Shown: positions 13,793 through 56,529 of the stretch, in pieces
How the letters are laid out: every line of letters begins with the position of its first letter
Numbering within the stretch: the first letter of the stretch is position 1
Assembly (NCBI GenBank): GCA_963730605.1
Contig: CAVSSM010000002.1
Span: 96,001-160,000, forward strand
Reading direction: 5' to 3'
From: an uncultured Chlamydiae bacterium
GTDB lineage: Bacteria > Chlamydiota > Chlamydiia > Chlamydiales > SM23-39
DNA length: 64,000 nt
Program-made: the position numbers and the translations under genes
The notes under the pieces: generated by a model
Database searches by the model: none
What the model was told of the DNA's origin: nothing
What the model saw: only the letters and a program-made list of their open reading frames with translations

Positions 13793-16007
13793 CAAGCGAC
13801 CGGAGAGCCTCTTCCAAGTCTTTGACTTTCGGCAGGACTTCTTCTTCCAGATCTTTGCAATAGGGAACGGGACAATCTTTTCCGGCGATGCGGCGCACGG
13901 GAGCGTCGAGGAAGAAAAACGCCTCTTCCGCCACGCGGGCGGCAAGCTCAGCGCCGAATCCGCAGTTGCGGGGCGCTTCATGGACAACGAGGAACTTGCC
14001 CGTTTTCTTGATGGAAGTTAAGACGGAACCAAAATCGAGCGGCACGAGGGTGCGAAGGTCGATCACTTCCACCGAGATCCCCTCTTTGGAAAGAGTGTCT
14101 GCCGCCTCGATCGCCATCAGGATCCCCATGCCCCAGGCGGCGACCGTGACATCGGCGCCGCTTTTCAGAATGGCAGCCTGGCCGAAAGGAAGAAGATCAT
14201 CGGGTCCAGGCTCGGGACGCGCGCAAAAGAGGCGCTGGCGGTAAAGGGCCTTATGTTCGAGGAAAATCACCGGATTTGGATCGCGGATCGCCGTCTTCAA
14301 AAGACGCTTCGCATCAGCCGCGTTGCTGGGGATCGCCACTTTCAGTCCCGGACAATGGGAGAGAAACGCTTCGGTGCTCTGGGAATGGTAAGGTCCGCCC
14401 TGGATGTAGCCGCCATAAGGCATCCGGATCACGACCGGGCAATTCCATACCCCATTGGAGCGGTAATACATGCTCGAGAGTTCATTGAAGAGCTGGTTCA
14501 TCCCTGTCCAGGCATAGTCGGCAAATTGGATCTCCGCAACAGGCTTATGAAAGCCGTCGAATGAAAGCCCGGTCGCAAGAGCGACGATCGTCGATTCGGC
14601 AAGCGGAGTGTTGAAACACCTATTTTCAGTAAAACGGTCGGTCAATGTGCGGGTGATGCCGAATACGCCCCCTTTGCCTCTTGCGACATCTTGGCCAAAG
14701 ACAACGACCCCCGGGTCTCGCTCCATTTCTTCGACGAGAGCGTGATTGAGCGCATCCATCAAGACTATGGCTTCCTTATCGGTAGGCTCGGCGGCTCCCT
14801 CGGAAGGTTGTAGAGCCGGCTCGTAAGGCTTGAACACTTTATCCGCAGCTGAGGCGCGGGAGGGAAAGGGAAGCCGATCTGCGGCTTGAGATGCCTCTTC
14901 TACGCGAACGAAATGGCGGCGGCGCAAAGCTTCTAGCTCTTCTTCAGTAAGATAGTTTTGGTCGAGAAGCCACTTTTCGAAACGGGGGATGGGATCGCGA
15001 AGCTTGTCGGAAGAGCGGAACGTTTCACACTGGTATTTTTTCGGGTCGTCGCTGCTGCTGTGAGGGCTGAGGCGGGGCACTTTTGCAATCACAAGACTCG
15101 GTCCCCCGCCTTGGCGGGCCCGAGCTACCGCCTTTTGGAGCGCATCAGCCGTTTCGATATAGTCGCAGCCGTCGATCTCAAAAACAGAGAGCCCATCGTA
15201 TCCGCGGGCCATTTTGGCGATCGTTCCTCCTGCCGTCTGTTCAGCGACCGGCACCGAAATTGCCCAGCCGTTGTCTTGGATCACAATGACAAGCGGCAAC
15301 TTGTGAAGGCAGGCGAAATTGAGCGTCTCGTGAAAATCGCCCTGAGAGGTCGCACCATCCCCTGCTGATACGTAAACCACTTCTATACCGCGTTCCGTCA
15401 GGTTTTGTGAATTTGGACTGGCTGCGCCTTTGCCTAATCGATTCTGTTTTTCGCCCTTCTCTTCTTGAGCATGTTGCTCAAAATGCGAATCGATTATGCT
15501 TTGGCTCGCAGAGTCCAAATTTACAAAACCTTCCTGCTCCCGGTATATTTTTTCACGCAAAACGGCCGATTTGGCAGTGCCCGCAGCTTGGAGGAACTGC
15601 GAACCTACGACGCTCGACTGACAAGGGATTCTCAAATCTGCTTGAGAAAAATGCTCCGGCATCATCCGCCCGCCCGAATGATTCTCGATATCGCGGGCTA
15701 AAAATGCAGCGAGAATATCGACAGGAGAACATCCAAGGCCGATGGCGAAAGCCCTGTCGCGGTAATAGGGAAATCCCCAGTCTACGCCTGGAGTTAAGGA
15801 AAGTGCTGAAACCGCCCCGATCAGCTCATGGCCGGAGACGGAGAGCTGAAAGGTCGCGCCCTTGTTCTGCCGAACAAGCTTTGCCATCTTGTCGTCCATG
15901 AACCGGGTCAAATGGAGAACTTCAAGGACGCGGAGAACCCGCTCCCGCGAGGTTAGGCTCCCTTTAATTAAATCTTCCAGCAATATGTCGTTTCGGTATA
16001 CATTCAT
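13782..16007 (-). CDS. Fused 2-oxoacid (probably branched-chain) dehydrogenase E1 alpha-beta with an in-frame 54-aa insertion
   Basis: TPP motif GDGATSQG...QDN, YYRD, HSSSDD, beta-subunit motifs TPLAES, AEIQFADY, YHSQS, DLRTLVPLD. Confidence 0.92.
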   Translation of the reverse strand: MNVYRNDILLEDLIKGSLTSRERVLRVLEVLHLTRFMDDKMAKLVRQNKGATFQLSVSGHELIGAVSALSLTPGVDWGFPYYRDRAFAIGLGCSPVDILAAFLARDIENHSGGRMMPEHFSQADLRIPCQSSVVGSQFLQAAGTAKSAVLREKIYREQEGFVNLDSASQSIIDSHFEQHAQEEKGEKQNRLGKGAASPNSQNLTERGIEVVYVSAGDGATSQGDFHETLNFACLHKLPLVIVIQDNGWAISVPVAEQTAGGTIAKMARGYDGLSVFEIDGCDYIETADALQKAVARARQGGGPSLVIAKVPRLSPHSSSDDPKKYQCETFRSSDKLRDPIPRFEKWLLDQNYLTEEELEALRRRHFVRVEEASQAADRLPFPSRASAADKVFKPYEPALQPSEGAAEPTDKEAIVLMDALNHALVEEMERDPGVVVFGQDVARGKGGVFGITRTLTDRFTENRCFNTPLAESTIVALATGLSFDGFHKPVAEIQFADYAWTGMNQLFNELSSMYYRSNGVWNCPVVIRMPYGGYIQGGPYHSQSTEAFLSHCPGLKVAIPSNAADAKRLLKTAIRDPNPVIFLEHKALYRQRLFCARPEPGPDDLLPFGQAAILKSGADVTVAAWGMGILMAIEAADTLSKEGISVEVIDLRTLVPLDFGSVLTSIKKTGKFLVVHEAPRNCGFGAELAARVAEEAFFFLDAPVRRIAGKDCPVPYCKDLEEEVLPKVKDLEEALRSLAKF
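15384..15547. mobile_element. Family A element inserted in frame in the E1 gene
   Basis: TATACCGCG...GTGAATTTGGACT and AGTCCAAATTTAC...CCCGGTATA ends; TA duplication, net 162 nt = 54 codons. Confidence 0.92.
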
Positions 16008-16051
16008 GCAGACATAATAAACGAAGAAGGACTAAAACTTTAGGTAAATTA

Positions 16052-54689: not shown

Positions 54690-55289
54690 ATGCATCGTTC
54701 CCCTCACCTTGAACTGGCCAAATTGCTCTGGGAGCGGCAGCTCGCTTTGGGCGATACGGCAATCGACGCGACTTGCGGCAATGGGCAAGACACCCTTTTT
54801 CTTGCAAAATTGCCCCTATCCGCCCTATTCGCTTTGGACATCCAGCTCGCAGGCCTAGAAAAGACCCGCAAGCTGCTAGAGGGGCAATTGACGGGTGAGG
54901 AGCTGAGACGGGTTCATTTATGCCATATGCCGCACGATGATTTGCGCAAAGTGCCCCAAATGCCTATGGCCAGCGCCCTCCGGCTCATTGTCTACAACTT
55001 GGGCTATCTGCCGGGCGGAGACAAATCGATTACGACAAAGACAGAATCGACCCTGGCGAGCATCGATTCAGCCCTTTCGATCCTAGGAGACGCGGGGGCG
55101 GTTTCCATCACCTGCTATCCAGGGCATGACGAGGGGAAAAAAGAGGAAGAAGCGGTCCTTGAGATGGCCTTATCTCTTCCATCGGACCGGTGGGAAGTGC
55201 GGCATCACCGGTGGCTCAATAGGCACCGCTCGCCGAGCCTGCTCTGGATCCGTTCAAAAGGTTTAAAAGCCGCCGGGCCTCATCCATAA
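54690..55289 (+). CDS. Class I SAM-dependent methyltransferase (YtqB/MnmM-like)
   Basis: IDATCGNGQDT, DIQ, YNLGYLPGGDK, YPGH. Confidence 0.85.
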   Translation: MHRSPHLELAKLLWERQLALGDTAIDATCGNGQDTLFLAKLPLSALFALDIQLAGLEKTRKLLEGQLTGEELRRVHLCHMPHDDLRKVPQMPMASALRLIVYNLGYLPGGDKSITTKTESTLASIDSALSILGDAGAVSITCYPGHDEGKKEEEAVLEMALSLPSDRWEVRHHRWLNRHRSPSLLWIRSKGLKAAGPHP

Positions 55290-56529
55290 GATAAAAGCTG
55301 CCGCAAATCACTTCGCGCGCGTCAACCGATCGGATCGCCTCTTGCAAAGATCCACCGCCAAGAGGGACAAAACGGGGATGGGTATTGATAAAACTGATCT
55401 TGGCGGCAAGAGGCCGGATCAGATCCAAACAGGCTTGCCACTGCTTATCTTTCGAAAAGGCGACGAGGAAATGAAATTTCTCTTTCGGAAAATGGATTCG
55501 AAGCGCCTCGGCCAGCCGTGCGAAGCCTTGCGCATTATGGGCTGCATCGAGAACGGTATCGCCGATGATTTCAAAGCGGCACGCCGGCCGGGCCCGAATC
55601 CCCGCTTCGATCGATTTTTCAGAGAGGCCAAGGCGCCTCATTGCTGCGGCGGCGACCATGCAATTTTCCGCATCGTAAAATCCCGAAACCGGAGGCACGG
55701 CCTCCGCATGGGGGAAAAAGGGCGCTGCGCTCGGGCCCGCGATGAATGGGATTCCTGTTTTGACAATTCCTGCTTTCTCGCGCGCGATTTTTTCTAGCGT
55801 ATCGCCTAAAATCTCCATGTGGTCGTATCCTATCGAAGTGATGACGGAGATTTCAGGTTGGATCACATTCGTCGCGTCAAGCCGCCCTCCCAATCCCACT
55901 TCGACGACCGCCCAATCGACCTGCTCTTTTCGGAAATGGAGGAATGCGAGGGCGGTCATGAGATCGAAAAACGAATAGGTTTCAGATTGCAATCGAAATA
56001 GGGCAGATAGATGGCAGATGATCTCCTTTTCGGCAATCACCTCCCCATCAATCCGGATCCTCTCGCTCATGCTAGAGATGTGAGGCGAAGTGTAAAGCCC
56101 GACGCGAAAACCCTCCGCTCTCAACCCTTCGGCGATCTTGGTCGCGACGGACCCTTTGCCGTTCGTGCCGCCGACATGGACTGAGCGGAAGGACCGGTGA
56201 GGAGATCCCAAAGTCTGGTCGAGCCTTTGGAACGCGTCGAACGTTTTGACCCCTCGTCCCGGCATAGCGAGCAGCTTCTCAATGAGAGTTATACCGCGCT
56301 CCGTCAGGTTGTGTGAATTTGGACTGGCTGCGACTTTGCCAAATCGATCCTTCTCGTCGCCCTTCCCCATTGAGGAATGGTCCCTACGGGCCGGTTCGCC
56401 TGCGCTCACCTGCTCCTCACTGCGAAGGTCCACCGGACCTTCTCGTGTTTCCGCAGCCTCCTGCGGATCAATTCTGCTTTGTCTCGCAAAGTCCAAATTC
56501 ACAAAACCATCCTGCGCGCGGTATGTCAT
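55216..56529 (-). CDS. folC: Folylpolyglutamate/dihydrofolate synthase with an in-frame 78-aa N-terminal insertion
   Basis: HVGGTNGKGS, YTSPH, EVGLGGRLDATNV, EKAGI, DAAHN, GSFYL; ATG overlaps the PHP stop (ATGA). Confidence 0.9.
   Translation of the reverse strand: MTYRAQDGFVNLDFARQSRIDPQEAAETREGPVDLRSEEQVSAGEPARRDHSSMGKGDEKDRFGKVAASPNSHNLTERGITLIEKLLAMPGRGVKTFDAFQRLDQTLGSPHRSFRSVHVGGTNGKGSVATKIAEGLRAEGFRVGLYTSPHISSMSERIRIDGEVIAEKEIICHLSALFRLQSETYSFFDLMTALAFLHFRKEQVDWAVVEVGLGGRLDATNVIQPEISVITSIGYDHMEILGDTLEKIAREKAGIVKTGIPFIAGPSAAPFFPHAEAVPPVSGFYDAENCMVAAAAMRRLGLSEKSIEAGIRARPACRFEIIGDTVLDAAHNAQGFARLAEALRIHFPKEKFHFLVAFSKDKQWQACLDLIRPLAAKISFINTHPRFVPLGGGSLQEAIRSVDAREVICGSFYLMDEARRLLNLLNGSRAGSASGAY
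56290..56525. mobile_element. Family A element, long variant with nested module, in frame in folC
   Basis: TATACCGCGC...GTGAATTTGGACT / AGTCCAAATTCAC...GCGCGGTAT; net 234 nt = 78 codons. Confidence 0.9.

Follow-up and report, generated by a model that had tools for sequence, protein, structure and literature searches.

We analyzed a 64,000-nt stretch of DNA from an uncultured Chlamydiae bacterium (hereafter, the window, which is G000:C2:96001-160000). G000 is the source assembly, with 2.2 Mb in 12 contigs, and is given as 83% complete. Within the window, the gene for the E1 component of a 2-oxoacid dehydrogenase and the gene folC each contain, in frame, a copy of a palindromic element. [quoted passage not shown] The features at the two loci are (aa, amino acids):

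13782..16007 (-), host gene, fused alpha/beta E1 of 2-oxoacid dehydrogenase, 741 aa
15384..15547 (-), A2 coding-type palindromic MITE, with TA at both ends, in frame in the E1 gene
55216..56529 (-), host gene folC, 437 aa from the ATG at 56529, matches TIGR01499 above its cut-off
56290..56525 (-), A2 coding-type palindromic MITE, with CA/TA ends, after codon 2 of folC
56385..56456 (-), internal cassette of 72 nt (24 codons) within the folC copy, absent from the 54-codon allele P0021
56526..57338 (-), upstream PHP-domain gene, whose TGA stop overlaps the ATG of folC (ATGA)

The E1 and folC inserts

The E1 copy is 164 nt long and adds a net 162 nt (54 codons) to its gene, and the folC copy is 236 nt long and adds a net 234 nt (78 codons). 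Aligned to each other, they match at 88% over a stretch of 76 nt and at 86% over one of 63 nt. Orientation and reading frame are the same for both. An initial annotation of this DNA had described both inserts, with these coordinates and lengths and the peptides that they encode, and we confirmed this description in the sequence. As RNA, both copies are predicted to fold very stably (-68.5 kcal/mol and z = -10.5 for E1; -109.1 kcal/mol and z = -8.2 for folC), and in each case, 0 of 200 shuffles were as good.

A match to the E1 was present in 39 of the 41 genomes that we searched. (Two members of its protein cluster are named as 2-oxoisovalerate dehydrogenase E1.) Orthologs do not broadly carry the insert. 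Among 29 non-self loci, 9 gave no motif match and were left out, and the insert was absent from all 20 ortholog loci with a readable motif, in which the site is a short variable turn. In the closest relative, G003, whose DNA is 91% identical at E1, there is a 162-nt gap opposite the insert. We rejected a duplication of AT instead of TA at this site because it predicts a 160-nt gap. We also found no intact second copies of the host genes: other E1-like genes in the assembly are 30-36% identical to the host E1, and neither folC nor uppP (see below) has a second copy in the assembly.

In the E1 protein, the insert comprises residues 154-207, between a helix and the strand that precedes the GDG motif. 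From the known fold, we take this turn to be at the strand end opposite the thiamine-binding GDG motif. We mapped the insert onto an AlphaFold model (20 sequences, predicted template-modeling score [pTM] of 0.84, and a mean predicted local distance difference test score [pLDDT] of 80.8). In the model, helix 134-153 precedes the insert and strand 211-216 follows it. Past its first residues, blocks of the insert have pLDDT values of 34-59, with residues 183-205 under 50, while the flanking core is at 86-95. The beta half of the model has a template-modeling score of about 0.92 to solved E1 beta chains. In other words, E1 keeps its fold in the model, and the insert is a predicted low-confidence excursion between a helix and a strand, where the initial annotation had expected a surface loop.

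For folC, we considered where the protein starts. The overlap of its ATG with the stop of the PHP-domain gene is also kept in a relative without the insert, so folC most likely starts at 56529 and encodes 437 amino acids, with the insert following codon 2. The public collection contains exactly this 437-aa call and not the 471-aa open reading frame (ORF). Public members of the FolC cluster show a series of alleles at this site: P0020 has the exact empty junction, P0021 has a 54-residue insert at the same place, and P0018 and P0019 have a 78-residue insert. In the folC of G003, the gap is 231 nt, which is one codon short of 234. The 72-nt cassette of the folC copy recurs in other repeat families, and the same cassette separates the copy at G000:C1:495566 (234 nt net) from the orthologous copy in G003 (162 nt). 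The part of the insert that the FolC alleles share differs at 7 of 54 residues and the host differs at 20 of 356; this faster change of the insert is as expected of cargo. The FolC of another genome (G064) carries the same insert family at another site, so FolC was hit independently at two sites in two genomes. Also, a HemN carries the insert peptide after the same Met-Thr as in folC, again at an ATGA overlap.

Subfamilies, reading frames, and IS630 ends

We searched G000 with a profile of the element ends and found 32 paired copies and 15 unpaired arms. The elements are 113-269 nt long, lack a transposase, and have arms of 35-60 nt with 72-86% complementarity. By core sequence, this family (family A) comprises two subfamilies: A1, which is the intergenic type, and A2, together with a longer form (A3). 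A2/A3 and A1 have just their ends in common (about 35 terminal nt for the 6150 and 12540 copies). The A1 copies in the window are:

6150..6314 (no strand), A1 MITE, 165 nt, intergenic, one end identical to the IS630 ends of L195 (see below)
12540..12704 (no strand), A1 MITE, 165 nt, intergenic, 98% identical to the 6150 copy and in the opposite orientation

The initial annotation had assigned all four copies to one family and proposed that the two shorter ones are stop-free in the same frame as the coding copies. The cores divide this family in two, and the stop-free frame is not a general property of it: of the 25 paired A1 copies, 14 have stops in all six frames, another 8 are 165 nt long with one open frame and a frame-shifting length, and 3 are open. 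The 6150 and 12540 copies are indeed stop-free in that frame. However, the peptide that was quoted for them fits the 6150 copy alone, both are intergenic, and their net length of 163 nt is not a multiple of three, so they would shift the reading frame. We rejected the A1 copies as coding copies; none of the 25 is in frame in a well-supported gene. Their nearest-neighbor identity is 93-100% (100% for 12 of them), and by this measure the A1 copies are young.

In contrast, all 10 full-length copies of A2/A3 in G000 lie within ORFs. The hosts are E1, folC, the 3' end of kdsB, the 3' end of C2:161103-162527, two genes without family matches, ybeY, a CT351-family gene, and, at their 5' ends, two more genes. 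If random TA sites were hit, in-frame landings were neutral, and our rough gene calls were correct, then 28% of copies would be expected in ORFs (P = 3 · 10−6; at a generous 60%, P = 0.006). Five A2 pieces are truncated; four of them do not lie in ORFs, and the fifth is an in-frame remnant of 36 nt. The ybeY copy (G000:C1:687410-687573 (-)) is an A2 variant that is read in another, open frame. In this copy, matching changes in both arms also remove a stop that other copies have in that frame. Two other candidates were dropped as coding copies: a second kdsB copy at C1:713608, which is a fold-back artefact (the retained kdsB copy is also within the fold-back region), and a half element upstream of alr, which precedes the likely start.

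Beyond G000, matches to the family were present in 18 of 103 genomes from the same bacterial family and in 37 of 400 from the phylum, spread over five bacterial families. The insert peptide was found in 13 public proteins. In six genomes of another family, we picked 30 loci out of 143 matches; they contain 27 distinct elements, of which 26 have both ends. As the initial annotation had suggested checking, we asked if coding copies have lengths that are multiples of three. Of the 26 copies, 16 are in long ORFs (taken without an ortholog check), and all 16 have such a length; 14 of the 16 use the same frame.

The coding copies also favor one orientation. In the E1 copy, the frame in use has 19% hydrophobic residues, as compared to 35% for the proteome. 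The phase-matched frame of the opposite strand is open too, with 41% hydrophobic residues. Five coding copies in G000 are open both ways, and all five use the hydrophilic frame. In the six genomes of another family, where both frames are open, the hydrophilic frame is used nine times and the other once. Pooled, 14 of 15 copies use the hydrophilic frame (P = 0.0005, although related copies are not independent).

To look for a likely mover, we scanned metagenomes for the pattern of the ends and found 47 loci, 31 of them with a paired end. One of these loci, L195, is 1,175 nt long and TA-flanked, and it has two ORFs with helix-turn-helix and DDE_3 domains and an IS630 match. The transposase matches NF033545 (E = 1 · 10−26) on the second of the two ORFs, below the whole-protein cut-off, and the split between the ORFs at an A-run looks like programmed frameshifting. 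Compared to the ends of L195, the A1 arm has no differences (32 of 32 and 27 of 27 nt), and the four arms of the E1 and folC copies agree at 22, 25, 23, and 27 of 32 nt. The L195 IS630 matched just 2 of 250 genomes of the order, at 64-66% over part of the transposase, and the loci in those two genomes do not have the same ends as L195. Nothing in viral contigs matched the pattern of the ends.

G000 contains another IS630, with 14 copies at 99.9-100% identity, all TA-flanked. Its left end is nearly equal to the end of a second palindrome family (family B). At locus L109, G000 has an intact IS630 of 348 aa. Family B gives a direct view of the TA duplication: one of its sites is an empty TA in G000 and is filled in G003. 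Overall, the elements of family A have the size, terminal inverted repeats, TA duplication (folC excepted), IS630 ends, and dispersed filled and empty alleles of an IS630-type bacterial MITE. Judged by these features of sequence, they are MITEs with IS630-family ends.

Explanations for the coding copies

We think it quite likely that IS630-ended MITEs insert at TA sites and that the copies that keep the frame are tolerated within genes. An IS630 transposase would move the non-autonomous MITEs in trans into TA sites. A2 is divisible by three in length and has one hydrophilic frame without stops. If a copy enters a TA with the correct orientation and codon phase, and does so where the protein is tolerant (in a surface turn, a linker, or a protein end), the gene would stay open, and the protein would gain a floppy segment of 37-89 residues. 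Other landings in needed genes would be purged by selection, which would account for the pattern that we observed. Genes might also shelter A2 while intergenic copies decay: because only frame-keeping changes survive in genes, gene-borne copies would outlast intergenic ones, and this longer survival could explain why full-length A2 remains only in genes in G000. Later, inserts are remodelled in multiples of three, as the 72-nt cassette at two loci shows, probably by exchange of internal cassettes between repeats. The insert peptide itself is most likely tolerated cargo with no selected function.

The host genes are under purifying selection. With the inserts excluded, dN/dS relative to G003 was 0.10-0.25 for 11 of 11 hosts (0.14 for E1 and 0.24 for FolC). 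On the branch leading to G000, the ratio of synonymous to non-synonymous changes was 19:5 for E1 and 10:6 for FolC, by a rough parsimony that is biased to conserved codons. The inserts are probably translated, and the host enzymes probably remain active.

Several observations weigh against this explanation. First, dN/dS and the branch counts span the time before insertion as well as after it. Second, just 2 of 30 paired MITEs from metagenomes were in long ORFs, and copies in the genomes G090-G092 were seen outside of long ORFs. Third, the initial annotation had proposed that excision with a TA duplication gives clean junctions. This is right for E1 (TA at both ends) and agrees with the empty orthologs and with P0020, but the folC copy does not have a perfect TA duplication (CA on the left and TA on the right). 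Fourth, the A2 arms match L195 less well than the A1 arms do, and the L195 IS630 was not found in G000 (an 83%-complete assembly). Finally, one insert that is shared with G003 has just 2 differences outside of the cassette junction, while its gene is ~11% diverged. Plain neutral inheritance does not explain such a near-unchanged insert; conversion, recent transfer or movement, or constraint may.

It is also possible, if doubtful, that A2 is a MITE lineage that has adapted to coding sequence across the chlamydiae, with genes as its lasting reservoir, length variants and swapped cassettes in multiples of three, a hydrophilic frame that is kept by selection, and start-adjacent copies that survive mainly under translational coupling to the upstream gene. 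At the start-adjacent copies, a ribosome that has just terminated might start again beyond a hairpin at which free initiation would be blocked. Among inserts within three codons of the ATG, 6 of 10 are ATGA-coupled, as are 7 of 17 N-terminal candidates, versus 196 of 1,500 genes (both comparisons are post hoc).

Alternatively, the gene might carry the insert and the working protein lack it, either because the hairpin leads to skipping or removal at the level of RNA or because N-terminal copies use a downstream start. The hairpins are very stable, with ends that meet. One N-terminal copy (G000:C1:383410) has ATG at its right end, which gives a new in-frame start just past the element, and the folC insert contains an in-frame ATG, with another ten codons beyond the insert. 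However, removal would make the frame, the length in multiples of three, and the orientation irrelevant, and all three are kept. The elements had no match in Rfam, which found just three tRNAs in the window. A later start cannot bypass an internal copy such as the one in E1, and the ATGA-overlapped start of folC is retained in the empty relative. We consider this alternative improbable. We rejected inteins and self-splicing introns: inteins need particular splicing residues at their ends, which the insert peptides lack, and no Rfam intron matched the elements.

Another alternative is that the inserts are domesticated, with selection acting on a role of the peptide or of the mRNA hairpin (such as RNase III processing, translational pausing, or an interaction tag). 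The same peptide does occur in many unrelated proteins across families, FolC was hit twice, the folC insert persisted over ~6% divergence of the host protein, and the G003-shared insert mentioned above is more conserved than its gene. But close relatives lack the insert at nearly every site, the hosts belong to no common pathway, the peptide evolves faster than its FolC host, and lengths range from a 36-nt remnant to 299 nt. Furthermore, G000 and G003 have family B copies that lie at different sites and still are 96% alike, so likeness between species may come from recent movement or from conversion. A selected role seems quite improbable to us.

That the host genes are decaying, or that the inserts are assembly artefacts, is very improbable and already largely refuted: the assembly is not free of faults (C1 ends in a 35-kb fold-back, C8 and C10 also have fold-backs, and pheS is broken), but the E1 and folC ORFs are intact and under purifying selection, a second assembly has the same 741-aa E1 (with one difference in the host part) and 437-aa FolC (with two differences), and a 375-nt contig from sequencing run X1 (possibly not independent of the source) spans the left E1 junction with zero differences. 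The second assembly and the X1 contig make an artefact unlikely. No joined form without the insert was present in the contigs of four DNA runs, although contigs cannot show absence.

Known coding palindromes and other repeats

The initial annotation had compared these inserts to Rickettsia palindromic elements (RPEs) and proposed a similar system in a chlamydial lineage. The nearest named relatives of the FolC are from metagenome-assembled genomes (MAGs) of "Chlamydiae bacterium" (54% and 39%), and G000 also has CT351-family and chlamydial-type MurC-Ddl matches. With these relatives, empty orthologs, and no second copy of folC or uppP, an RPE-like habit in a chlamydial lineage is borne out.

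As described in PMC10969869 and PMC2229807, which summarise Ogata et al. (2000, 2002), RPEs have both in-frame and intergenic copies, occur in unrelated conserved genes, form hairpins of ~150 nt, and come in several families per genome. An RPE insert in gmk leaves the enzyme active (Abergel 2006, as summarised in PMC2229807). By these descriptions, our elements resemble RPEs in their long hairpin, their in-frame copies in unrelated conserved genes, their one conserved peptide, and their empty orthologs. They differ in being from another phylum, in being longer (111-315 nt net) and modular, and in that TA ends are usual and there is an IS630 whose ends match; for RPEs, the duplication is listed as unknown and the TA ends as variable in PMC2229807. 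In other words, the elements work like RPEs but are not members of the RPEs. NCBIfam contains RPE models, and at the peptide level, five insert peptides compared to NCBIfam, with E values up to 5, gave no RPE match; no other relevant NCBIfam model matched the insert peptides either.

Other known systems share some of these features. The Correia/NEMIS element of Neisseria, with 107-bp and 155-bp species, is described as a TA-ended MITE with two related forms (PMC2229807). By that description, one form is open and often fused to genes and the other is stopped in all frames and nearly always intergenic, much like the A2/A1 split; unlike our elements, the fusions described there include transposase genes, whereas here we see core enzymes, internal inserts, and empty orthologs. 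The RUP element of Streptococcus pneumoniae is tied to IS630-Spn1 by its ends and its TA targets, with mobilisation inferred (PMC2229807). Our link from MITE to IS630 is of the same kind, but RUP, as described, is intergenic with stops in all six frames, while A2 is open and in genes. In-frame palindromes are also described for Wolbachia (Wolbachia palindromic elements; PMC4224334), as ERIC/RU-1 fusions (PMC2229807), and as QMITE2 fusions in Coxiella (PMC5896051). Judging from those descriptions, these too are in-frame palindromic inserts in real genes, partly in intracellular bacteria, but they belong to other phyla and families. Further background came from PMC3184786, PMC11602168, PMC9723776, and PMC3733652.

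Thus, the habit itself has been published before, from Rickettsia, Wolbachia, Neisseria, enterobacteria, and Coxiella. New at this locus are a matching IS630, the FolC allele series, and the patterns of orientation and coupling. We found no paper on such elements in chlamydiae, or on a link between RPE-1 and IS630, in a literature search that most subscription papers and all supplements lay outside of; the MITE census in PMC11602168 could list chlamydial MITEs in its supplements. The elements extend selfish DNA that is read as protein to the chlamydiae, on a large scale. The link to an IS630 by end identity and the natural series of FolCs (empty, +54, and +78 at one site) turn the mover and the cost to the enzyme into simple tests. 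Shared insert peptides also cause false homology between unrelated proteins, and wrong starts, in the annotation of chlamydial MAGs. If A2 is indeed an adapted lineage, it would be a coding palindrome with a mover that can be named and tested, which the reviews cited here, as far as they cover it, do not report for RPEs.

The window has a third in-frame palindrome, which the initial annotation missed:

7368..7636 (+), palindromic insert of another family, inside uppP/bacA (6969-8006), with a 237-nt gap versus G003

A model of UppP (six sequences, mean pLDDT 41) was too poor for use. Elsewhere in G000, recD2 has a 315-nt copy of family B in frame, the linker of the E2 gene has a 204-nt in-frame copy, and both sites are empty in relatives. 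The gaps in relatives have lengths that are multiples of three: 162 nt for E1, 231 for folC, 237 for uppP, 162 for kdsB, 204 for the E2 linker, 315 for recD2, and 111, 267, and 267 for three other genes. A rough census of G000 gave ~25-30 candidate host genes, of which 12 were checked against empty orthologs.

In another genome (L154, G006:C25), kdsB carries a separate in-frame insert of 192 nt that has a family B-like end and occupies a different, internal site. At several orthologous sites (L243, L246, L258, L261, and L274, compared to G000), a repeat is present in both G000 and G003 but the middles differ, which suggests that repeats undergo conversion or that the sites are hot spots of insertion. 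In addition, a very short repeat module occurs in frame, singly or in tandem, at G000:C1:164300, C2:62436, C3:9346, C9:194809, and C5:81853; its hosts include a peptidase, MurC-Ddl, TamB, and an amino-acid dehydrogenase. Overall, G000 has 292 local inverted repeats from more than 15 families, mostly of 160-190 nt, and many multi-copy insertion sequences from several families.

Inverted duplicates that fold back, with 88-97% identity and one error-rich arm, are at G000:C1:703152-737986, C10:1-20199, and C8:9-8762, so repeat counts are inflated at those contig ends. Within the window, pheS (51150-52234 (-)) has frameshifts and an in-frame stop and no second copy was found; a local assembly error is more likely than a real loss. 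An island-like block (44700-51151) lies beside a tRNA gene (51067-51151) and contains a serine recombinase (49285-51078), a BsuBI/PstI-type endonuclease with an Eco57I-type methylase (45394-47507), and a DUF4145 gene. Two other genes in the window encode a 612-aa protein whose sole domain is a C-terminal HicA (36838-38676 (+)), and a protein with a ubiquitin C-terminal hydrolase domain (32936-34129 (-)).

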